Source of the DNA: Alphaproteobacteria bacterium
Lineage (GTDB): Bacteria > Pseudomonadota > Alphaproteobacteria > UBA6615
Reading direction: 5' to 3'
NCBI GenBank assembly: GCA_009691025.1
Contig: SHWB01000007.1
Coordinates: 28,231-92,230 of the forward strand
DNA: 64,000 bases
Positions 6,362 to 58,089 of the stretch are shown here, one piece after another. A program made the position numbers and the translations under genes. The notes under the pieces are model-generated. The model saw nothing but the letters and a program-made list of their open reading frames with translations, was not told where the DNA came from and did no database searches. The number at the start of each line of letters is the position of its first letter. The stretch's first letter is position 1.

Positions 6362-6587
6362 CGTCTCTTCCCGTAAAACGCGCACGGCCCCCGAGCCTGC
6401 GGCGGACCGCGAAGATGGCCTTCGCCGCGCCGGCCTGTCAACGCCCGGCCAGCCGTGGCGAAGGCACGGGAGGCCGTGCCGTCAGCCGTTCGTTTACCGC
6501 CTCTCCTCTAGCCTTGCGGGACGAGGCGGACGGACCGGGGCGGTGCCGCCCAGGTCCCGACTCCGCCGGACAGGACGAGGCCAGCGT

Positions 6588-8345
6588 ATGGGCTTGAGCA
6601 AGAGCGCCGCCACCGCCGCTGGCACGATGGGCGAGCCGCGCGAAGCGGTGACCCAGCTTCGTGCCGAACGCGACCGGTTCGTGGCGCTGGCCTTCACCAG
6701 CGCCGACATCCTGATGGAGATTGGCGAGGGCGCTATCGTCGCCTTCGCGGCCGGCGCGATCAAGGCCTTCGTCGGCCGCCCCGACGACGTGCTGGTCGGC
6801 AGATGCTTTCTATACTGCGTGGTGAAATCCGACCGCGCGGTGGTCGATGGGCTGTTGCACAACGCGCGACGCGGCACGCGCATCGACAACGTCGCCGTCC
6901 GCCTGGTTGGCACGGCCGGTGAGACGCCGTCGCTGTCGTTGTTGGGCTTCCACATGCGCGAGCTGGGCGGCCACACTTACCTGTCGCTGCGCATGGCGCC
7001 GGTGCCGCGCGTGATCGATGTCGATTCGGTCGGCAGCATGCCCGACAGCACCGTGCTCGACAAATCCTCCTTCGCCAACGCCGCGACGCGCGCCGTCGAG
7101 GATGCGCGCGCTTCCGGAGAGGACAGCCGCCTGACCCTGCTCGACCTCAACAATTTCGTCGAGCTGCACGACCGCCTCGGCGAGGAAGCGCGCCAGGATC
7201 TGGAGCAGACCCTCGGCGCCACGCTGCGCGCCAGTTCTCTGCGCGGCGACACGGCGGCGCAACTCACCGAGGAGAAGTTCAGCCTCGTCCGCAGCATGCA
7301 TCGTGACGTGAAGGGCATGGCGCGGGAGAGCGAGACGGTGGCGCGCGCCGCCGATCCCGACGGCCAAGGCGTCCGCATAGCCAACCGCACCGTCGACGTC
7401 GACACGACACAATTGTCCGAGCAGGATGCGGTGAAGGCGCTCGTCTACACCATCAACCGCTACTGCGACACGACGCCCGAGGCCTTCAGCTTCCGCCCCC
7501 TGACGGAAAGCCTGTCGGTGCTGGCCGACGAGACGGTCGAGAAGATGGGCCGCTACGGCAAGCTCATCGAAGTGTCGAACTTCGAGGTTGCCTTCCATCC
7601 GATCTGCGACCTGCTGACCGGCCAGCCGCATTATTTCGAGGCGCTGGTCCGCTTCGACAAGAGCGTCGGCGCCTCGCCCTACGAATTCATCACCTTCGAC
7701 GAGGAAGTCGGCCTTATCTGCGAGTTTAACCTCGCCATGTGACGCAAAGTGCTGGAATTGGTGCGCGGGGCCAACGGGGCCGGCCACAAATACATGGTGG
7801 CGGTGAACATGTCGGGCCGCTCGCTGTCGACGCCGTCCCTCGTTGAGGCGATGCTGGCCATGCTGCGCGGCGCCGGCAAGGCGCGCGAGAACGTGCTGTT
7901 CGAGATCACCGAATCGGCGAAGCTCGACAATTTTCCGGAGGCCAACAACGTCATCCAGGGGCTGTGCAACGGTGGCAATATCGTCTGCCTCGACGATTTC
8001 GGCGCCGGCGTGTCGGCCTTCCAGCACCTGTTGGCGTTGCATATCGACGTGGTGAAGATCGACGGCGGCTACGTCCACAACGCCATCCGCAACGTGCGCT
8101 GCAAGGCGCTACTGAAGGCGATGGCCGGCATGTGCCGCGACCTGTCGATCACCACCATTGCCGAGATGATCGAGCGCGAGGAGGTCGCCCGCCTCGTGCA
8201 CGAATGCGGCATCGAGTACGGCCAAGGCCATCTCTACGGCAAGCCGCCCAAATACATCGACCAGTTCGCCGCGCCGCGGCCGGTGCCTTTCGACGCCGTG
8301 CCGATGCGTCGGCCGGGACCCGCCCGCAACGGCACGGAGGGCTGA
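6588..8345 (+). pseudogene. PAS-like / degenerate GGDEF / EAL c-di-GMP phosphodiesterase-type protein interrupted by an in-frame TGA at 7740-7742
   Basis: EALVRF motif and the following EAL block GLICEFNLAM[TGA]RKVLELV continue in the same frame, so the ORF track splits one gene into 6102..7742 and 7749..8345; GGDEF-like region lacks the GG(D/E)EF motif. Confidence 0.65.
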
Positions 8346-16008: not shown

Positions 16009-16144
16009 CAGGACAAGAGGCCGCAGGGGGCCACAGGGGCCGCATTAGCGCGCGATGTGCTATGAACGATTCATGTCCGGAATCGCACGCATTGACGTGC
16101 CGCCCCTGACGCATTCGCTGTAGGCGCGCCTGCGGGCGCTGACG

Positions 16145-17425
16145 GTGGCGTTAGTCATGCTGGCGGAAGGGCTGATCTACCTGCCGTCGATCGCCAATTT
16201 ACGAGTCAACGGGCTGACCGAACGCGTCGCCGCCGCGCGTCTCGCCGCGCTGGCGATAGAAACCACGCCGGAGGGCGGAATCGCCGGCGGCACCAAGGCC
16301 GAGGTGCTGCGGCTGTCCGGCGCCAGCGCCATCGTGCTCTCACGCCCCGACCGCCGCGTGCTGCTGTTCGTTGACGTGCCGCCGCCGGTCGAGGTCGTCG
16401 TCGACCTGCGCCGGCGCTCGGTGCTGCCGCCCGTCGGGGCGGCGCTCTATTCGATGCTCTTCGGCCGCGACCGCACCATGCTCGCGATCGCCACGTCGCA
16501 TGGCGAACCGGACCTCGTCGTGGAGATCGTGCTCAACGAGGCGCAGCTCTGCGCGTCGATGCTGGCCTATTCGCGCAACGTGCTGCTGCTGTCGATCGCG
16601 ATCTCGCTAATCACCGGCGTGCTGCTCTACCTCGTGCTGCTCGGGCTGGTGGCGCGGCCGCTCGGCCGCATCGCCGGCGGCGTCGCCGATTTCGCGCGCG
16701 CGCCGCAGGACGAGCGAGCCGACGTCGACCCGACCGAGCGGCGCGATGAACTCGGCGTCGTGCAGCAGGCGCTGGGCGGCATGCAGCGCGACGTGCGCGC
16801 CGCGCTCGGCGAACGCGCGCGCCTCTCCGCCCTCGGCTCGGCGGTCGGCAAGATCAACCACGATTTGCGCGGCATCATGTCGACGGCGGTGTTGCTGACC
16901 GACCGGCCGGAGACGCTGGAGCAGCCGGAAATGCGGCGTCTCACCGGCCGTGCCAACCAGGCCATCGACCGCGCCATCGGCCTGTGCACGCAGACGCCCG
17001 ATTTTGCACGTGACGCCGGCCCGTCGCTGGAACGCGCGCGCTACCGTCAGCGCTACCTCGTTGTCCGGGTCGCCGACGAACTCGCCATCCTCGCCGGCAG
17101 CGCTCGCGGGCCGGGAGCTCGGCTGGTCAACGAGATTCCGATCGCCACGGTCGTTGAGGCCGACCACGAGCAGCTCTGGCGCGTCTTCGCCGACCTCGCC
17201 CGCAACGCCTTCGAGGACGGCTCGACCGCCGTGCATGTGAGCCTCTGATCGGGCGACGCCGCGCCGGCGGTCTTCGCCATCGCAGTCGCCGATGACGGCC
17301 CCGGCCTCGGCCTCGCCATCGGCCGCGACGTGATGCGCGCGCACGACGGCGATATCGTCCTGCTATCCACCGGCGACCCGGGGACGGTTTTCAGGCTGAC
17401 GTTGCCCGCTCCGCCCGGCACGTAA
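16145..17425 (+). pseudogene. Sensor histidine kinase interrupted by an in-frame TGA at 17246-17248
   Basis: H-box INHDLRGIMST, N-box LARNAFEDGSTAVHVSL[TGA]SGDAAPAVFAIAVADDGPGLGLAIGRDVMRAHDGDIVLLSTGDPGTVFRLTLP; the G1/G2 ATPase boxes follow the stop in the same frame. Confidence 0.65.
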
Positions 17426-19595: not shown

Positions 19596-20054
19596 TCACC
19601 GGCCCCGGTGAAGCAACCGCGGGTCAGACAAGCGCCTTGACGAGATCGGGCGGCGCGGGCCGGCCCCCGGCCGCCTCTCGTGGCGGCTCTGGCGGCCGAG
19701 TTCGACACGCAGGTTGTGGCCGCTGACCGCGCGGGCCTGTTCCTCCATCGCCGCTGCGAGGCGACTGGCGGTCTGGCCGCCGGCGCCGAGATCGGCGGCG
19801 GCGAGGTTTTCGGCCACCAGAGGCGGGCCTTCCAGCAGCCGGTCGACGCGACGCCAGGAAAACAGGGCGTGCAGATAGCCGTCCGGCGTCTCCAGCACGG
19901 TGATGCCGGTCTCGCCGGGCGATTGCTGGCCGGCACCCATCGCGAAGGCGCGCCAGCGCCCGACGCTGAGGGCCGGGTCGAGGGCGCGCACGAGGGCGAA
20001 GGCCCGTTCGAGGCGTTCGGGCGGCAGGCGGCGAGCGACGAGGCGGGTGTGCAT
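19596..20054 (-). CDS. Hypothetical protein (possible acyltransferase-like fold)
   Basis: ORF with coding-like composition, divergent from the fnr-like gene; FNR/FixK box immediately upstream. Confidence 0.35.
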   Translation of the reverse strand: MHTRLVARRLPPERLERAFALVRALDPALSVGRWRAFAMGAGQQSPGETGITVLETPDGYLHALFSWRRVDRLLEGPPLVAENLAAADLGAGGQTASRLAAAMEEQARAVSGHNLRVELGRQSRHERRPGAGPRRPISSRRLSDPRLLHRGR

Positions 20055-20107
20055 GGCAGCCTCACGAAGGGTGGCGCCAGATTGCGTGTCGGCGGCCGTC
20101 CCCGTCA

Positions 20108-20121
20108 TTGACGTGAGTCAA
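20108..20121. promoter_or_regulatory. FNR/FixK-type anaerobox TTGAC-N4-GTCAA
   Basis: Perfect palindrome ttgacgtgagtcaa between the divergent hypothetical gene and the fnrN-like gene. Confidence 0.55.
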
Positions 20122-20215
20122 GGTGGCGCCGCCGCTCGCCGGTCCGGCGGGTTGTCCTGGATCAATTCGCCGCCGGCGGGACGGCGTAGGCTTGCCATAA
20201 AGCGGGGACGGAACG

Positions 20216-20974
20216 ATGACCCTGGGCGAGACTCACGGCCGGCCGGCGGCGAACCAGCCCGATTGCTGCGATGGCGGCGGCCTCAGCGCCGCCTGCCGCG
20301 TTTGTACGGTACGGCCGAGCGCGGTCTGCGCGACCCCCGACGATGGTTAGCTCGCGCGCCTCGACGCCATCGCGGCGCGGGTGACGGCCGCGTTCGGCAC
20401 CGACATCTTCCGCGAGGGCGAGCCCGCCGGGGCGCTCTACAACCTCACCGCCGGCACCGTGAAACTCTACAATATGCTGCCCGACGGCCGCCAGCAGGTC
20501 GCCGGCGCCCTGTTTCCCGGCGACTTCCTAGGCCTCGCCATGAACGATGCCTACGCCCATACGGCCGAGGCGATGGACGACGCCGCCCTCTGCCGCTTCC
20601 CGCGCGGCCGCTTCGAGGGGCTGCTGGAGCGCATCCCACGCCTCGAGTACCGCCTGCTGGCGATGGTTTCGAACGAACTTGCCCAGGTCCAGGACCAGAT
20701 GCTGCTGCTCGGCCGCAAGAATGCGACCGATAAGATCGCCAACTTCCTGCTGCAGCTGTCGCGCCGCCAGGCGGCGCGGAGAGAGCCGGCAAACCCGGTG
20801 CGCATGCCGATGGGCCGCACCGACATCGCCGACTATCTCGGCCTGACCACGGAGACCGTCAGCCGCACCCTCACCAGCCTCAAGACCGGCGGTCCGATCC
20901 GCCTGCTGCACGGCAACTCGGTGGAGCTGCGCGACCGCGCCGCCCTGGAGGCGCGGGCCGGGGGCGGATCGTGA
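20216..20974 (+). pseudogene. fnrN: FnrN/FixK-family CRP/FNR transcriptional regulator interrupted by an in-frame TAG at 20348-20350
   Basis: Upstream of the ORF-track start the same frame encodes the FNR N-terminal Cys cluster CRVCTVRPSAVCATPDDG[TAG]LARLDAIAARV, then the cNMP-binding (IFREGEPA) and HTH (TDIADYLGLTTETVSRTL) regions. Confidence 0.65.
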
Positions 20975-21031
20975 GGGCCTCGTCCTTCGACAGGCTCGCC
21001 TCACCCTGAGCCTGTCGCAGGGCGAGGCGAG
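20974..21031. repeat. REP/MITE-like palindromic element (family 1), short copy
   Basis: GGCCTCGTCCTTCGACAGGCTCGCCTCACCCTGAGCCTGTCGCAGGGCGAGGCGAGCC between the fnrN-like gene and the M20 remnant. Confidence 0.45.
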
Positions 21032-21100
21032 CCTCCCTCGGTGCTCGGCGAAAGGTCCGCCCGCGTTGACCGGCTCACGGCGCGCTTCTAGCCTTCCCCC

Positions 21101-21529
21101 ATGCTCGAGACAGTGGCCGACCGCCTGCTCGCCGCCATCGCCGCACGGCGCGACGATGTGGCGAAACGGACTTCGGAGCTGGTGCGCATTCCCTCGGTCA
21201 ATCCGCCCGGCGAGGCCTATGCCGAATGCTGCGAGGCGCTGGCGCTGCGGCTCGGCAATCGGCGCTTCCGCTGCGATTACCTGCGCGCCGAGGGCGCGCC
21301 GGGCTACAGCGACGCCCATCCGCGCCTCAACATCGTCACCCGTCGCGAGGGCGCGCGGCACGGGCCCTGCGTGCATTTCAACAGCCATATCGACGTCGCC
21401 GCCGCCGGCCAGGGCTGGACGGCGGACCCCTTCGGCGGCGAGATTTGCGACGGCATGGTCTGGGGCCGCGGCACGGCCGACATGGATGGTGGCCTCGCCG
21501 CCGCGCGCCTGCTGGGGACGCTCGCGTGA
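21101..21529 (+). pseudogene. Truncated M20-family peptidase (ArgE/DapE-like), N-terminal 142 aa only
   Basis: Ends just after the conserved GRGTADMDGG block (GRGxxDMKG equivalent); M20 peptidases are about 380-400 aa; the stop overlaps the GTG start of the next gene. Confidence 0.55.
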
Positions 21530-22551
21530 TCCTGCGCACCGGCGCGCGCAACCTGCTAACCGACGTTCCCGGACTCGTGGTCGGCAACGCGCAGGACGAG
21601 GCGATCCGCAGCGGCGTGACTGTGGTGTTGTCGGAGGACGACGACTTCGTCGCGGCGGTCGACATCCGGGGTGGTGGCACCGGCACGCGCGAGACGGCGG
21701 CCCTGGCGCCGGAGGGCGTCGTGCCAGCGGTGCACGGCATTGTGCTGTCGGGCGGTTCGGCCTTCGGCCTCGATGCGGCCGGCGGCGCCATGACCTGGCT
21801 GGCCGCGCAGGGGCGCGGCTTCGCTGTTGGCGCGGCGCGCGTGCCGGTAGTACCGCAGGCGATCCTGTTCGACCTGCTCAACGGCGGCGACAAGGGCTGG
21901 GCGGTGCGGCCGGATATGGCCAACCCCTATCGCGCGCTCGCCGTCGCGGCCTGCGCGGCGGCCGGCGCCGACTTTGCCCTCGGCACCGCCGGCGCGGGTT
22001 ACGGCGCCATGGCCGGGGGCCTCAAGGGCGGGCTCGGCAGCACCTCGATCGTGCACGAATCCGGTCTGACGGTAGGCGCGCTGGCGGCGGTGAACGCGCG
22101 CGGCTCGGTGCTGCTCGACGGCAGCGCCGCATTCAACGCCTGGGCGGTCGAGCGCGACGGCGAGTACGGCGCCGTGCCTCCGCCCGTAGCACCCCTGCCC
22201 GATCCCGACTGGAACCTCGCCGGCGCGCGCCTGCCGGCCAACACCACGCTCGCCATCGTCGCCACCGACCTCGCTCTGGACAAGGCGCAGGTGCAGCGCC
22301 TCGCCACGATGGCGCAGGCTGGCCTCGCCCGCGCCATCCGCCCGGTGTGGACGCCGCTCGACGGCGACGTGGTGTTCGCCGTCGCCACTGGCCGGCGCGC
22401 GCTGCGCGACCCCGTCGGTGACCTCGCGCTGGCCGGCGCGCTGGCGGCCGACTGTCTCGCCCGTGCCGCCGCGCGCGGTGTCTACAAGGCGAGCGACCTC
22501 GGCGCGATGCGCTGTTACCGGGAGATTTACGGCTCGGACGATGCGACCTAG
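21526..22551 (+). CDS. DmpA/OAT-type (S58/P1 family) L-aminopeptidase / D-esterase
   Basis: N-terminus RNLLTDVPGLVVGNAQDE...GVTVVL and overall S58-like pattern; GTG start at 21526 (GTGA overlap). Confidence 0.7.
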   Translation: MILRTGARNLLTDVPGLVVGNAQDEAIRSGVTVVLSEDDDFVAAVDIRGGGTGTRETAALAPEGVVPAVHGIVLSGGSAFGLDAAGGAMTWLAAQGRGFAVGAARVPVVPQAILFDLLNGGDKGWAVRPDMANPYRALAVAACAAAGADFALGTAGAGYGAMAGGLKGGLGSTSIVHESGLTVGALAAVNARGSVLLDGSAAFNAWAVERDGEYGAVPPPVAPLPDPDWNLAGARLPANTTLAIVATDLALDKAQVQRLATMAQAGLARAIRPVWTPLDGDVVFAVATGRRALRDPVGDLALAGALAADCLARAAARGVYKASDLGAMRCYREIYGSDDAT

Positions 22552-22639
22552 TGCTTTCCGGGCGCAGTGGACTCTCTTGTGTGGCCGGGTCGCGCCCGGC
22601 TTTCTGGTGGTGCCGCTCGTATTCGGGCCGCCACTTGCC

Positions 22640-22885
22640 TTCTTGAGGCTTTGCCGTCCTACGAAACCCATCGACTGGCCAAAATTTTCGGCGCTTCTGT
22701 TATTGTTTCTATAGTAGCGTATCCATTAGTATTGTTTATGGGTGTTCCCCCGTTCTTTGTGCTGAAAGCATGCAAGAGAGATGGAATTTTAAGGTATTTT
22801 CTGACAGGATTAGATCTAGGTGCATGTTTTTTCTTCTTGATGGCGCGTGCTTCGATACCGGACTCCCCGCGTCCTTTCTTTCTCT
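22640..22885. other. Low-GC (about 40%) islet with small ORF(s) encoding a predicted 2-TM peptide
   Basis: Sharp composition drop relative to the roughly 65-70% GC flanks; ORF 22567..22887 (hydrophobic segments IVSIVAYPLVLFMGVPPFFVL, LGACFFFLMA) uses atypical codons. Confidence 0.3.
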
Positions 22886-23197
22886 AATGCAGCTTGGCGC
22901 TGGCGGCGCCTTGACCGCCGGGCTGTTCTGGCTGATCGCCGGGCCCGACGGCGTCGACGCTCGGCTCGGCAGTGACCGAGCACTTGCTTACGGCGACTTG
23001 CCGGAGGCGGCGCAGGGAAGCAAGGCTGGGTAGAGCCGCCGCACCTCTACCGTTGCGGTTCGACCACCACCGTGCCGATCTTGTCGCCGATTTCGACCAA
23101 CTCGTGCGCGGCGGCGCAGTCGGCGCGCGGGAAGCGCGCCGCCGCCTGCGGTTGACCTTTGTCGGCGGGCGCCGAACGATGCGCCACAGGAGATCGC

Positions 23198-23611
23198 ATG
23201 CCCCGCTTTTCGCTTGATTCGCAACTCGCCGCCAGTACCGTGCGGCTCGCGCGCTGGAAGCTGTCCGATGCGCTGCTGTCGACGGACGCGACCTATCCAT
23301 GGCTGATCCTCGTGCCGCGCCGGGCGGGGGTTGTCGAGCTGACCGACCTGCCATGGGCCGACGCAATGGCCCTGACGGCGGAGATCCGCCACGCGTCGCG
23401 GGCTCTGACGGAGCTGTTTGCGCCGAACAAGATCAACGTCGCGGCGATCGGCAATCAGGTCCGCCAGTTGCACGTCCATGTCGTCGCCCGCTTCCGCGAC
23501 GATCCGGCTTGGCCGCGGCCGATCTGGGGCGCAACGCCCAGCCGCGCCTACGATCCGGCCGAACTCGCACGGCGACGCAAGGTGCTGGTGCGCGCCCTCA
23601 CGCAGGATTGA
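23198..23611 (+). CDS. HIT-family (histidine triad) hydrolase
   Basis: HVHVV histidine-triad motif; AGGAG RBS before the ATG at 23198. Confidence 0.8.
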   Translation: MPRFSLDSQLAASTVRLARWKLSDALLSTDATYPWLILVPRRAGVVELTDLPWADAMALTAEIRHASRALTELFAPNKINVAAIGNQVRQLHVHVVARFRDDPAWPRPIWGATPSRAYDPAELARRRKVLVRALTQD

Positions 23612-31731: not shown

Positions 31732-32604
31732 TCAGGCGGGCCGGCCCGGTTCCGGCGGCGGGGTGAAGATCATGTCGCGCCGCACGGCGTCGAGATCGGC
31801 GCAGCCCAGCATGGCCTGGGCGTTGGCCAGCTCGTCGCGCAGCAGGCCGGCGGCGCGCGCCGCGCCGGCCTTGCCGCCGGCCGAGACGCCATAGAGGAAG
31901 GCGCGGCCGGCGAAGCAGAAATCGACGCCGAGCGCGATGGCCTTCAGGATGTCGGAGCCGCGCCGTATGCCGCCGCCGAAGAGCAGCGGCCGGGCCTCCG
32001 GCACCGCCTGCCGCACCTCGCACAAGCTGTCGATGCTGGCGGGCATGAAGTCCAGCCGGTTGCCGCCGTGGTTCGACACGACGACCGCGTCGGCGCCAGC
32101 CGGCAGGCCGTCGCCACGTCTCCGGGGGCGAAGCAGGCCCTTGATCACCAGCTTGCCGCGCCAGTGCGCGCGGATGCTCTCCATGTCGCTCCACACCAGG
32201 GTGGGCGGCCACACGGTGGCGAAGAAGCGCAGGATGTCCGTCGGCGAGCTGCCGGGCGGCGCATAGGGCTGCCAGCTCTCCGCCGCCGGCATCCCGCCAT
32301 TGGCGAGGAAGCGGCACAGCCAGTCCTGGTGGCTCAGCAAATTGGTGAAGATTCCCGGCCATTTGCGCCAGTCGATCCCGCCGCGCAGCGACACGCCGGT
32401 GCGCAGCGGCACCTCGCTGCGGTTGGCCACCGGGTAGTTCACCGCGACGGCCAGCACCTCGACTCCGGCATTGCGCGCCTGCGCCATCATCCCCTCGGTG
32501 ATGGCGTGGGCCTTCGCCGGATAGATCTAGCTCAAGACCTGCCCGGGCGCGATGCGGGCAACGGTCTCGCTCGCCGCCTCCGACATCACCGGCTTACGCC
32601 CGCG
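31732..32604 (-). pseudogene. FMN-dependent alpha-hydroxy acid dehydrogenase (LldD/glycolate oxidase family), N-terminally truncated with an in-frame TAG at 32527-32529
   Basis: C-terminal 252 aa carry VVVSNHGGNRLD and the FMN-binding end; homology continues upstream in frame across the TAG (...IAPGQVLS[TAG]IYPAKAHAITEGMMAQARNAGVEVLAVAVN) and is then lost in the low-GC insert at about 32600. Confidence 0.5.
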
Positions 32605-32709
32605 TTAATTGGTGGCGCCCTTACCGTAATCCGCATTTAGGGTGCTTTCCAACGCCATAAAGAGTATTTGCAGCGCTTCAATTATTAGGTCTTTTACTCT
32701 TTCTCGGTA

Positions 32710-32982
32710 TTATTGCACTTTAGCGTCTTTTCTTTCTAGGACATCCGCAGACCAATGTGTTCTCTCATTTCCAATCGAAAGATCATCGACCTCACTCGCC
32801 ACACCTATGAATACATCCAGAACATCGTCGGGCAAACACGCTAACCCGCCACGGATATCTGCCAAATCTTGACACGCAAGCAGTAAGTCTTGCTCTCCGG
32901 CAAGAGCGCGTTCTGCAATCTGTCTTGTAAGCGCCAGCATCACGGGATTGCTTCCGCAATGGGCATTCATGAGGGGCCTCAC
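32710..32982 (-). CDS. Small ORF (90 aa) of foreign composition inside a low-GC islet; function unknown
   Basis: About 50% GC with A/T-ending codons atypical for this genome; abuts the LLM gene stop; no recognisable domain. Confidence 0.3.
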   Translation of the reverse strand: MRPLMNAHCGSNPVMLALTRQIAERALAGEQDLLLACQDLADIRGGLACLPDDVLDVFIGVASEVDDLSIGNERTHWSADVLERKDAKVQ

Positions 32983-32983
32983 C

Positions 32984-34213
32984 CTACCCCACCGCCTCCG
33001 GCATCACCGGCGCGATCTCCTTCAGGCGTGGCAGGACCTCCTTGCCGAACAGGCGGATGCTCTTCTCGGACTCGGCATGCGTCATGAAGCCGGTCCGGCC
33101 GACCATGGTGAGGTGGCCGAAGCCGCCGACGGCCTCGTGGAAGCGCTCGACCTGGGCGACGACGCTGTTGGGGTTGCCGGCGAACATGATGCCCTGCGCC
33201 ATCGCCTGCTCGACGGTGATCGAGGTCAGCTTTGCGGCGTTGCGCTCGGCCGAGGCGACGCCCTTCTCGGCGTTGACAAGGCTCGGAGCGTCGGCGGCGC
33301 CATTCGGCCGCGTGCGCCAGCCCGGGCCGGCGATGCGCGGCGGCGCCACGCCGGGCATCAGATGCGCCATCTGCGGCCCTGTCTTGAGGCTGGTGTTGAG
33401 GAACCAGAGCTGCTTCTCGCCGCCCGCCTGCCCCTCCGCGTCGGTGTCGCCGACATGGACGAAGGCGCTGTAGGCAAAATGGTCGCTCGCCACCGGCGGC
33501 ATTCCGGCCTCGGCGCGCGCGGCGCGGTAGGCGGCATAGGCGCGCCGCGTGCCGTCGATGCCGCGCAGCACCAGAGTGTGCACCATGCCGCGCCGTCCGA
33601 CCTCGGCGGCGGTGTGCGGATCGCCCGTCGCCGCCCACATGCGGATGCGCTCCTGCCACGGGCGCGGCCAGATGTTCACATGGCGGTGGGTGAAGTGCTT
33701 GCCCTCCCAGGAGAACGGGCCGTCCTGGTGGGTCAGCGCCTTGCCGATCAGGTCGATCGCCTCCCAGTAGCGCTCGACATTGCCGACCGGGTTGGCGTTG
33801 GCCGAGGCGAATTCGCTGCCGCCAGACTTGACGAAGCCGATCTCCAGCCGGCCGTGCGAGATGACGTCGGCGGTGGCGTATTCCTCGGCCACGCGCACCG
33901 GCTCGCGGCGCAGCGATATGAGCGTGCCGAGGCTGAGGATGCGCGCCTTGCGCGTCTGCCGCGCGAGGATGCCGACCATCATCGGGTTGGAGCCGATCAA
34001 CGAGTTGATGCCGGCATGGTGCTCGGTGACGCCGATGTTCACGCCCAGATCGTCGCACAGCAGATACTCGTCGATCGTCTCGGCGAACAGGTTGGCGGCG
34101 ACACGCGGGTCGCACCAGCGGTTGGGCAGGCTCGCGCGCACCGCTTCGGCGGAATCGAGTACGCCCTTCTCCACATAGGGATACGGCACCTCGCACTGCC
34201 ACCACGCATCCAT
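32984..34213 (-). CDS. LLM-class (luciferase-like) flavin-dependent oxidoreductase
   Basis: 409 aa with LLM blocks (GVTEHH, TIM-barrel pattern). Confidence 0.75.
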   Translation of the reverse strand: MDAWWQCEVPYPYVEKGVLDSAEAVRASLPNRWCDPRVAANLFAETIDEYLLCDDLGVNIGVTEHHAGINSLIGSNPMMVGILARQTRKARILSLGTLISLRREPVRVAEEYATADVISHGRLEIGFVKSGGSEFASANANPVGNVERYWEAIDLIGKALTHQDGPFSWEGKHFTHRHVNIWPRPWQERIRMWAATGDPHTAAEVGRRGMVHTLVLRGIDGTRRAYAAYRAARAEAGMPPVASDHFAYSAFVHVGDTDAEGQAGGEKQLWFLNTSLKTGPQMAHLMPGVAPPRIAGPGWRTRPNGAADAPSLVNAEKGVASAERNAAKLTSITVEQAMAQGIMFAGNPNSVVAQVERFHEAVGGFGHLTMVGRTGFMTHAESEKSIRLFGKEVLPRLKEIAPVMPEAVG

Positions 34214-37238: not shown

Positions 37239-38542
37239 ATGGTCGACCCGCGGCATTTTCGCTTCCAGACCTTGGCGCTGCATGCCGGCCAGCAGCCGGA
37301 TCCTGTGACGGGTGCGCGCGCCCAGCCGATCTACCAGACCACCTCCTACGTCTTTCCCGATGTTGACCACGCGGCGAGCCTGTTCAATCTCGAACGGCCG
37401 GGCCACATCTACAGCCGCATCTCCAACCCTACTGTCGCCGTGTTCGAGGAACGGGTGGCGGCACTCGAAGGCGGCGTTGGCGCGGTGGCGACGGCGAGCG
37501 GCCACGCGGCGCTCGTGCTCGCCGTCACGACGCTGATGGGCACCGGCGGGCACATCGTGGCCTCGCGTGCCCTCTATGGTGGAAGCCACAATCTGTTCGG
37601 CCACACCCTGCCGCGCTTCGGCATCACGACGACGCTGGTCGATCCGCGCAAGCCGGAGGATTTCGCTGCGGCGATCCAGCCCGAGACGCGGCTGGTCTTC
37701 GCCGAGACCATCGGCAATCCCGGCCTCAAAGTGCTCGACATAGCCGCGGTGGCGAAAGTGGCGCACGGCGCAGGATTGCCGCTGCTGGTCGATGCGACCT
37801 TCACGACGCCGGCGCTGCTGCGCCCGTTCGAGCACGGCGCCGACCTGATCCTGCATTCGGCGACGAAATGGATCGGCGGCCACGGCGTTGCCATCGGCGG
37901 CGTGCTGGTCGATGGCGGCCGCTTCGATTGGGAGGCGTCGGGCAAATTCCCCACGCTGACCGAGCCCTATGCCGGCTATCACGGCCTCGACTTCGCCGAG
38001 GAGTTCGGGCCGGCCGCCTTCGTCATGCGCGCCCGCGCCGAGGGTCTGCGCGATTTCGTCGCCTGCATGGCGCCGCAGACCGCCTTCTATCTGCTGCAGG
38101 GGCTGGAGACGCTGCCGTTGCGCATGGCGCGCCACGTCGCCAATGCGCGCTCCGTGGCGACTTTCCTCGAACGCGCCGAGGAGGTGGCGTGGGTAGCGTG
38201 GCCCGACCTCGAAAGCCACCCGGACCACGCGCTGGCTCAGCGCCTGCTGCCCGACGGGCCGTGCTCTATCGTCACCTTCGGCATCCGGCCGGGCAAGGCC
38301 GGCGCGCGCGCGCCGGCGCGAAGTTCATCGAGGAGCTCGGCCTGTTCTCCCACCTCGCTAATGTCGGCGACGGCAAGTCGCTGGTCATCCACCCGGCGAG
38401 CACGACGCACCAGCAGATGAGCGCCGACGACCTCGCCCGCGCCGGCGTCGGCGAGGAACTGATCCGCCTGTCGATCGGCCTCGAACACGAGGACGATCTG
38501 ATCGACGATCTGCGCCAGGCGCTGCGCGCCTCGCAGCGGTGA
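37239..38542 (+). pseudogene. metY: O-acetylhomoserine aminocarboxypropyltransferase (sulfhydrylase) with a frameshift in a (GC)n run near 38300-38312
   Basis: PLP-enzyme blocks intact through ...[17 protein letters not shown] in frame 0, then continue ...[35 protein letters not shown] in frame 2 (ORF 37868..38542); the shift lies in ggcgcgcgcgcgccggcgcg. Confidence 0.7.
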
Positions 38543-57555: not shown

Positions 57556-58089
57556 TCACATCCGCGCACGCTCGATCAATGCAGGCGTCTCGGCCATCGC
57601 CCTCGCTACGATGGCGGCGCAGGAGCGGGCGGCGGCCAGCGCGTCGTGGTGCTGCACGAGATCGATGCCCAGCGTCAGGCAGACATTTGGCAGCCGCGTC
57701 TGGCGGATGTTCAATGCCGCGCGCGCCAACTTTACCGTGCAGATGAAGCGCTTGCGCAATGGCGGCAAGCCGTAGCGCGCGGCGGTCGCGCGCTGCACGT
57801 TGCGGTCGAAGCCGGCGTTGTGCGCTGCGAGTAATTCGGCGCCGGCGGCGAAGCGGGCGATGGCCGGGTAATGGCCGGCTAAGTTGGGCGCTTCGGAGAC
57901 ATGCTCCCGGGCGATGCCGTGCAGCGCGGTGAAGCGCGGCACGAACCAGCGTTCCGGCTGGTGGATGGGCAGAGCCAGCTAGTCCGTGACGATCCCGTAC
58001 TCGACCCGCACGAGGACGAGGGCGCTGGCGCTGTCGGCGCTGTAATTGGCGGTCTCGAAGTCGATCGCCACGAAAACATGGTGCGGCAC
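57556..58089 (-). pseudogene. DnaQ-like 3'-5' exonuclease (DEDDh) interrupted by an in-frame TAG at 57979-57981
   Basis: Exo I motif VFVAIDFETAN in ORF 57979..58275 and Exo III motif HNAGFDRNV in ORF 57556..57942 are in the same frame, separated only by TAG (...VEYGIVTD[TAG]LALPIHQPERWFVPRFTAL...). Confidence 0.55.

Follow-up and report, generated by a model that had tools for sequence, protein, structure and literature searches.

A probable pseudogene of an FNR-type oxygen sensor, interrupted by an amber codon in its sensory region, in an alphaproteobacterial genome

The 64,000-nt stretch of DNA analysed here (GenBank assembly GCA_009691025.1 of an Alphaproteobacteria bacterium, lineage UBA6615, contig SHWB01000007.1, positions 28,231 to 92,230; hereafter the window, in whose coordinates all positions are given unless a relative is named) contains the frame of an oxygen regulator of the CRP/FNR superfamily, referred to as fnr, in which codon 45 reads TAG. 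The locus raises the question of whether the amber codon has put an oxygen sensor out of use, or whether a regulator is still produced, either from a start downstream of the stop or by translation through it, and whether the stop is genuine at all. On the evidence assembled below, the locus is very probably the pseudogene of an oxygen sensor of the FnrL/FnrN/AadR type, killed by one amber codon and already decaying.

The interrupted frame and its intact relatives

The frame opens with ATG 20216, preceded by GCGGGGACGGAACG, and its first 44 codons (MTLGETHGRPAANQPDCCDGGGLSAACRVCTVRPSAVCATPDDG) lead directly to the amber codon. Past the TAG it continues for 207 further codons to TGA 20972-20974 with no other stop, and comprises 252 codons when joined over the interruption. 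The earliest start codon on the 3' side is GTG 20381, from which the annotated open reading frame (ORF) of 197 amino acids (aa) runs (P0002). The parts of the former gene are as follows.

20216-20347, plus strand: first 44 codons of the former fnr gene, by translation; N-terminal sensory region
20348-20350, plus strand: in-frame amber codon TAG, codon 45, in place of Glu; same TAG in Logan contig L001
20351-20974, plus strand: remaining frame after the TAG; cyclic nucleotide (cNMP)-like beta-roll, dimerisation helix and Crp-type helix-turn-helix (HTH); includes the 197-aa ORF

When joined over the stop, the translation matches Pfam cNMP_binding at 57.6 bits (cut-off 27.5), HTH_Crp_2 at 59.4 bits (cut-off 27) and Crp at 44.5 bits (cut-off 21). 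The top NCBIfam models are FnrL, FixK and Fnr at 169, 144 and 129 bits, against cut-offs of 300, 300 and 228. The best-scoring of these, the Rhodobacter equivalog NF045989 (FnrL), reaches 168.9 bits, well under its 300-bit cut-off, and the locus is therefore filed as FNR-type and not as an FnrL equivalog; the Caulobacter equivalog NF050806 (FixK) likewise stays far below its threshold (144 versus 300 bits), and the ancestral cysteine cluster is clearly encoded. Among structures in the Protein Data Bank (PDB), the nearest entries are FixK2 of B. japonicum (4i2o, the best-scoring, aligned from residue 51) and FNR of Aliivibrio fischeri (5cvr/5e44), whose alignment begins at residue 18 and thus covers the cysteine region. 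That region contains the motif C27-X2-C30-X7-C38 (20294-20329), which lies upstream of the stop together with C17 and C18, whereas the central Cys126 (20591-20593; LCRFPR) lies downstream of it. The Crp-type HTH spans residues 201-223 (20816-20884), with the recognition motif ETVSR at 213-217; in E. coli FNR, the E--SR motif of the recognition helix reads the TTGA half-site. The stop-joined frame thus encodes a full-length CRP/FNR superfamily regulator with an Fe-S cysteine motif, in which C27, C30, C38 and C126 are the putative [4Fe-4S] cluster ligands, and its domain content, cysteine spacing and recognition motif place it in the Fe-S branch of the superfamily (FnrL/FnrN/AadR type). As the stop falls at codon 45, the four ligands are split over two translation products and no single polypeptide has all of them.

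The same domain order is found in FnrL of Rhodobacter, FnrN of Rhizobium leguminosarum and AadR of Rhodopseudomonas, which also have the same C-X2-C-X7-C motif and central Cys spacing, the E--SR motif and a TTGA-N6-TCAA box upstream. In contrast to these regulators, the window frame is broken at codon 45 and drifting, it is paired with a divergent gene of predicted GNAT fold, and the clade to which it belongs has an extra CC pair (DCC[ED]GG) before the Cys motif.

A database search with the fnr product returned thousands of homologs, the closest of which form a small clade: P0001/L003 (252 aa, 83% identical to the window protein), L043 (85% identical over 220 residues, the closest intact relative), L002 (from the metagenome-assembled genome GCA_050246875.1, JBFWVF010000002.1, and wholly syntenic with the window over 20 kb) and L004/L005. 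At the site of the stop, the window reads GGT TAG where L043 reads GGC GAG, L003 GCA GAG and L002 GAC GAA; the corresponding residues are DDG*LARL in the window, DDGELARL in L043, DDAELARL in P0001/L003 and SDDELVRL in L002. The replaced Glu is invariant in an alignment of 113 more distant homologs, being one of 46 invariant columns. This comparison indicates that the stop arose from Glu codon 45 by a single step, GAG to TAG. Approximately 45 relatives at ≥55% identity all have an uninterrupted ORF and the C-X2-C-X7-C motif, and the window copy is the only interrupted one. The stop itself recurs in the Logan contig L001, a 5.2-kb contig assembled from SRR8561391 (a Lake Baikal winter sample from 1350 m), which is 100% identical to the window over 5175 nt, and an identical 197-aa product is present in an ENA assembly. 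A scan of genome contigs yielded no genome of the same species (best match 63%), and a metagenome scan added just one member to the clade, namely L043.

One candidate for a natural start downstream of 20350 was considered and rejected. P0003, the L002 ortholog, is annotated with 200 aa from an internal ATG, yet an intact 252-codon ORF with the Cys motif lies upstream of that start; the true ORF is L002:9845-10603, beginning at ATG L002:9845, and the 200-aa length is evidently a start-calling artefact. P0003 was the sole candidate among the close relatives.

An earlier note, made from the letters of the window, had described an FnrN-like oxygen regulator with a box at 20108-20121, ATG 20216, TAG 20348-20350 and GTG 20381; all these coordinates are confirmed, and the stop-joined translation bears out the family. 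The 44 codons upstream of the TAG are clearly homologous to FNR N-termini, and the proposal that the stop replaces a sense codon by one step from GAG is upheld by the pairing of GGC GAG in L043 with GGT TAG in the window. The ORF from GTG 20381 lacks the sensory N-terminus, as had been stated, with Cys27, Cys30 and Cys38 all upstream of the TAG.

Three observations concern the immediate surroundings of the frame. Directly 3' of the fnr stop lies a 58-nt G+C-rich palindrome (20977-21034) made of two overlapping inverted repeats of 17-21 nt; it has no T-run, and so is not a classical terminator, it is not found in L002 and it occurs once in the window. A scan of 19950-21150 for sigma-70 promoters and terminators found none. 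Within the fnr N-terminal codons, ARAGORN calls a tRNA-Leu(GAG) on the minus strand (20233-20319), which we regard as a false positive, since no Rfam tRNA match was obtained even at E≤10 and the corresponding site of L002, L003 and L004 has no such call.

Relaxed selection and competing explanations

Selection on the window copy was assessed by counting methods rather than with a likelihood branch model. At the 46 family-invariant columns, the window deviates at seven, P0001 at none and L002 at one; the seven deviations comprise L to P just before the stop, the stop itself, and then L to M, R to Q, F to A, A to V and E to D. A similar picture is given by the 82 columns conserved at ≥95%, where the window deviates at nine, compared with a mean of 0.8 and a maximum of 5 among the 113 outgroup sequences. 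Family-invariant residues are therefore replaced beyond the stop as well, for example KLYNMLPDGRQQVAGALF in the window versus KLYKLLPDGRRQITGFLF, and the replacements extend to the otherwise invariant YKLLPDGRRQITGFLF loop and to positions of the dimerisation helix.

Changes unique to one lineage show the same bias. The ratio of nonsynonymous to synonymous changes is 24:5 for the window, as opposed to 5:9 for L003, 15:12 for L002 and 8:14 for L004 (24:5 versus 28:35 for the pooled relatives, Fisher p=6e-4), and for the part after the stop it is 19:4 versus 21:28 pooled (p=0.002). Within the closest trio, the counts are 21:17 for the window, 3:12 for L043 and 6:12 for L003 (21:17 versus 9:24 pooled, p=0.03). 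The methyltransferase gene next to fnr served as a control; its ratio in this genome is 9:11 and resembles that of its relatives, indicating that the nonsynonymous excess is specific to fnr and is no long-branch effect. At the nucleotide level, the window, L043 and L003 lie at similar distances from one another (~10-15%), whereas the window protein is 83-85% identical to those of its sisters, and L043 and L003 are 93% identical in protein. The earlier note had viewed the regulator as inactivated by its stop; that view stands as far as the stop is concerned but falls short of the pattern, as fnr shows relaxed selection along its whole length, which is more than mere interruption.

The amber codon would matter less if the 197-aa ORF were translated from GTG 20381, for instance by re-initiation 31 nt past the stop, to give an oxygen-insensitive activator of the FixK kind. 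Homologs without a cluster occur naturally in the form of FixK-type proteins, which recognise the same box (PMC7888657). FixK and FixK2 of Bradyrhizobium and Sinorhizobium resemble the residual ORF in that they have no N-terminal cysteines and join a beta-roll to an HTH for the same box; the alignment of FixK2 (4i2o) to the family starts only at residue 51, gene callers predict the 197-aa protein, and the post-stop frame is free of stops and frameshifts, with ETVSR and the HTH intact. The changes in this part, however, are strongly nonsynonymous (the 19:4 given above, a count that cannot formally separate positive selection for a new function from neutrality), and fall on residues that the 113 homologs never vary: K to N, L to M, R to Q, T to A, F to A in a beta-roll loop, A to V in the dimerisation helix and E to D. 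E. coli FNR without its cluster is monomeric and inactive. Moreover, no Shine-Dalgarno-like sequence precedes GTG 20381 (GCGGCGCGG), and this start would correspond to residue 43 of FixK2, such that the N-terminal helix segment before the beta-roll would be missing. FixK proteins are intact, evolve under purifying selection and have an N-terminal segment of their own, whereas the window ORF looks like the leftover of a Cys-containing ancestor, is preceded by no recognisable ribosome-binding site and has had invariant residues replaced. As the excess of replacements also holds after the stop, a functional FixK-like product is unlikely, and we give it only a slim chance.

Still smaller is the chance that the TAG was introduced by sequencing or assembly, or that only a minority of cells carry it and most keep an intact and functional gene, as might be envisaged for a single-base lesion in metagenome assemblies, which collapse populations and may share reads. 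The same base was nevertheless obtained by two assemblers, and the genes around fnr have suffered large deletions and additional stops of every kind, damage that does not consist of substitution errors. Seven deviations at invariant sites and a branch biased toward nonsynonymous change are not expected from read error and cannot be explained by it; the lesion thus seems to be neither recent nor a reading mistake. Translation through the amber codon, whether by programmed read-through, codon reassignment or a suppressor tRNA, with the full-length sensor still made, is highly improbable. In its favour, the damaged genes of the window show five in-frame stops of which three are TAG (16121, 20348 and 57979), and a C follows the fnr TAG. 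On the other hand, TAG terminates 6 of 30 intact genes in the window, a usage on the basis of which reassignment of the codon was rejected, and other broken genes have TGA stops, frameshifts and deletions; the window holds no suppressor tRNA, its only tRNA call overlapping the fnr locus being the ARAGORN false positive, and relaxed selection speaks against a product that still matters.

The pseudogene interpretation has to accommodate several points that weigh against it. A single set of Baikal reads may underlie the window, the ENA contig and the Logan contig alike. Past the TAG, the remaining 207 codons have gained neither a second stop nor a frameshift, which is weak evidence because a sequence of 72% G+C has few stops in whatever frame it is read. 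The upstream boxes described below, the Shine-Dalgarno-like GGGGA, the four Cys ligands and ETVSR are all still intact, and the inactivation therefore cannot be an ancient one. Significance in the trio test is only modest (p=0.03), and the ecological rationale is an inference from a single 100%-identical contig of one Baikal sample.

As a pseudogene, the locus can be accounted for as follows. The ancestral 252-residue protein would have bound a [4Fe-4S] cluster via Cys27, Cys30, Cys38 and Cys126, as suggested by the family, dimerised without oxygen, and bound TTGA-N6-TCAA boxes including one or two in its own divergent promoter region. A G to T change then turned the invariant Glu codon 45 into TAG, such that translation from ATG 20216 ends after 44 residues, inside the sensory region. 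Either subsequently or as selection was relaxing more generally, drift affected the whole frame and replaced residues that are unchanged in every other member of the family. The most likely cause would be a permanently oxic habitat in which dispensable sensory and accessory genes are being shed. The promoter boxes could be intact because decay has not yet reached them, or because they are still used by a CRP/FNR paralog elsewhere in the genome; no second CRP/FNR gene is present in the 64-kb window.

Promoter boxes and the divergent GNAT-fold gene

The region between fnr and the gene transcribed away from it contains two box-like sites, and this neighbour is itself damaged.

20108-20121, no strand assigned: distal FNR/FixK-type box TTGACGTGAGTCAA, in the intergenic region common to fnr and the divergent GNAT-like gene
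20152-20165, no strand assigned: proximal box-like site TTGTCCTGGATCAA (TTGTC-N4-ATCAA), two mismatches to TTGAT-N4-ATCAA
19596-20054, minus strand: divergent neighbour 'up153', a GNAT-fold gene frameshifted by a 31-nt deletion near codon 130

Apart from the distal box, the window contains no TTGA-N6-TCAA. Shuffled sequences are expected to contain 0.10 such sites, and 10 of 100 shuffles had at least one, so that uniqueness by itself is only mildly unlikely. The box recurs, however, at the equivalent site upstream of fnr in L003, L043, L002 and approximately 20 more distant orthologous loci, and this conservation of position across relatives shows that it is no chance match. With respect to the E. 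coli-type TTGAT-N4-ATCAA it has two symmetrical differences, giving a TTGAC-N4-GTCAA variant that is also found in many of the orthologous loci. The proximal site lies 44 bp downstream, centre to centre, and its conservation is confined to the close clade formed by the window, L043, L003 and L002. In R. leguminosarum, fnrN has dual anaeroboxes 32 bp apart, of which the distal activates and the proximal represses (PMC7888657). The proximal site would complete a comparable dual-box layout, with 44 bp between the boxes here versus 32 bp in fnrN, and is a candidate functional site by analogy.

Among loci, the distance from the box varies for both start codons, the median being 76 bp for the GNAT-like gene and ~105 bp for fnr, and the distal box may serve the divergent gene instead of, or besides, fnr. 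The anaerobox had been assigned to fnr as its own: a perfect and conserved TTGA-N6-TCAA does lie upstream, but the assignment is incomplete, since the region is shared with the divergent, conserved GNAT-fold gene.

Of ~40 loci with an fnr of ≥56% identity to P0001, ~30 have a homolog of this 153-aa gene divergent to fnr. The members of its GNAT-like family are ~150-170 aa long and the family has no Pfam or NCBIfam match. An AlphaFold2 model built from a 12-sequence alignment (pLDDT 81, pTM 0.79) gave a Foldseek list of PDB hits consisting of GNAT N-acetyltransferases throughout (E from 2e-6, TM 0.6-0.69), whereas a profile search of the family against PDB sequences returned acetyltransferase matches at non-significant values only (E 0.6-1.8). 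The assignment of a GNAT fold, which we state as a prediction, consequently comes from the AlphaFold2 model and Foldseek. An exhaustive profile search recovered 658 cluster representatives (50% identity) at E≤1e-10; out of ten sampled representatives, eight have no Pfam match, one matches Acetyltransf_1 and another includes 4Fe-4S ferredoxin domains as a fusion. The latter, P0209 (355 aa, Fer4 domains), hints at a redox link for the GNAT-like family.

The deletion in up153 was identified by DNA alignment with L002 (counterpart at L002:9207-9668), L003 and L004, and tblastn covers residues 1-130 only. Both lineages with a damaged fnr also have the GNAT gene damaged, by the 31-nt deletion in the window and by a different, 53-nt frameshifting deletion in L004. 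In L006 and L016, however, fnr is intact and yet the GNAT-like copies seem truncated, so that the coupling is only suggestive. In L043, the sequence upstream of the fnr promoter (L043:1-605) ceases to align with the window ~30 nt into the GNAT-like gene, as would be seen if the gene had been rearranged or lost in L043, or if this short contig were chimeric.

We advance only tentatively, and as rather unlikely on present evidence, that the FNR-type regulator and the divergent GNAT protein form a conserved two-gene redox module sharing one box, with the GNAT protein as primary target or as modifier. Such a module is compatible with the conservation of the pair across many uncultured Alphaproteobacteria, with a GNAT-like family of ~650 clusters that has no Pfam model, with the ferredoxin-fused member and with the independent frameshifting deletions of the GNAT gene in both lineages that lost the regulator. 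If it exists, the window would record a module discarded as a unit in permanently oxic water.

Damage across the window, habitat and meaning

Damage to other genes was sought by comparison with the syntenic L002 and by Pfam profile coverage. A stop screen based on frame plots of G+C at third codon positions (GC3) and a crude GC3 gene finder were noisy and served as pointers only, each case being checked by Pfam coverage; the frame-plot screen overlooked the fnr TAG and flagged antisense frames. At least eight further genes besides fnr are damaged, and nine of the ~55-60 genes in the window (~15%) are counted as such. In addition to up153, they are listed below.

16073-17416, plus strand: histidine kinase; TAG 16121, TGA 17246 and a 69-nt deletion of the ATP-binding G1/F boxes; 473 aa and intact in L002
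21101-21529, plus strand: M20 deacylase (ArgE/DapE-type); residues 1-135 of 427 (L002) left, ~840 bp deleted
23050-23142, minus strand: PIG3-type Zn-dehydrogenase; 31-residue C-terminal remnant, 325 aa in L002
~6585-8345, plus strand: GGDEF-EAL protein; TGA 7740-7742 inside the EAL domain, with a Pfam EAL match that spans the stop
~37240-38542, plus strand: O-acetylhomoserine sulfhydrylase-type pyridoxal phosphate (PLP) enzyme of Cys/Met metabolism; frameshift near 38300
31732-32526, minus strand: FMN-dependent dehydrogenase without its first 115 profile positions
57556 to ~58200, minus strand: DEDD exonuclease (RNase_T family); TAG 57979-57981 just after the DFET ExoI motif, with a Pfam match that spans the stop

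As a result of its deletion, the M20 deacylase remnant now adjoins an S58 peptidase gene at 21526. At the Zn-dehydrogenase site (22551-23198), the DNA from 22551 to 23050 is of lower G+C and contains short ORFs with no family match. The PLP enzyme has Pfam profile positions 1-308 in one frame and 309-380 in another. Upstream of the FMN-dependent dehydrogenase, the DNA (32530-33000) is again of lower G+C and has no family match, as if the gene had been truncated by insertion or replacement. Housekeeping genes, including yidC, argG, folD, argB, trpS, rpsA and pyrF among others, look intact. With nine damaged genes in the window, the fnr lesion is part of a general erosion that affects notably sensory and accessory functions, and as one of many it represents no targeted regulatory change.

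The water column of Lake Baikal, from which the identical Logan contig comes, is oxic at all depths (PMC7678222). We infer that such a permanently oxic habitat is in keeping with an anaerobic regulator being lost as selection on it relaxed. A second loss is seen in L004 and L005, two identical sequences from separate samples. At their fnr loci (L004:2980-3639 and L005:182-841), an in-frame 99-nt deletion removes the HTH, further replacements are found at invariant positions, and both upstream boxes are point-mutated, the distal to TCGAC... and the proximal to ...ATTAA in L004. Synonymous distances group the window with L003/L043 and not with L004, which implies that the two fnr inactivations are independent.

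Nonsense loss of this regulator has a precedent in E. coli B strains, including BL21(DE3), which have a natural fnr amber at codon 141 and no detectable full-length FNR (PMC3149613). There too the global oxygen regulator was lost by a nonsense codon with the regulon genes and promoter remaining, although in those strains the amber lies mid-protein in a gene without visible decay, whereas the window stop lies in the sensory N-terminus of a gene that shows relaxed selection. In this sense the finding is an ordinary one: nonsense-inactivated fnr was already known, and such a loss is expected in a habitat that is always oxic. It corrects the annotation in two places, as the 197-aa 'cyclic nucleotide-binding' protein is very probably a pseudogene remnant and the 200-aa relative from GCA_050246875.1 is a case of a mis-called start.

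The analysis also brings to light a conserved, unannotated partner of an FNR subfamily, with a predicted GNAT fold, which is of moderate side interest together with the parallel loss and the density of pseudogenes. Two independent inactivations of one regulator in sister freshwater lineages, in a region where ~15% of the genes are broken, point to ongoing gene loss in a high-G+C, free-living bacterium.

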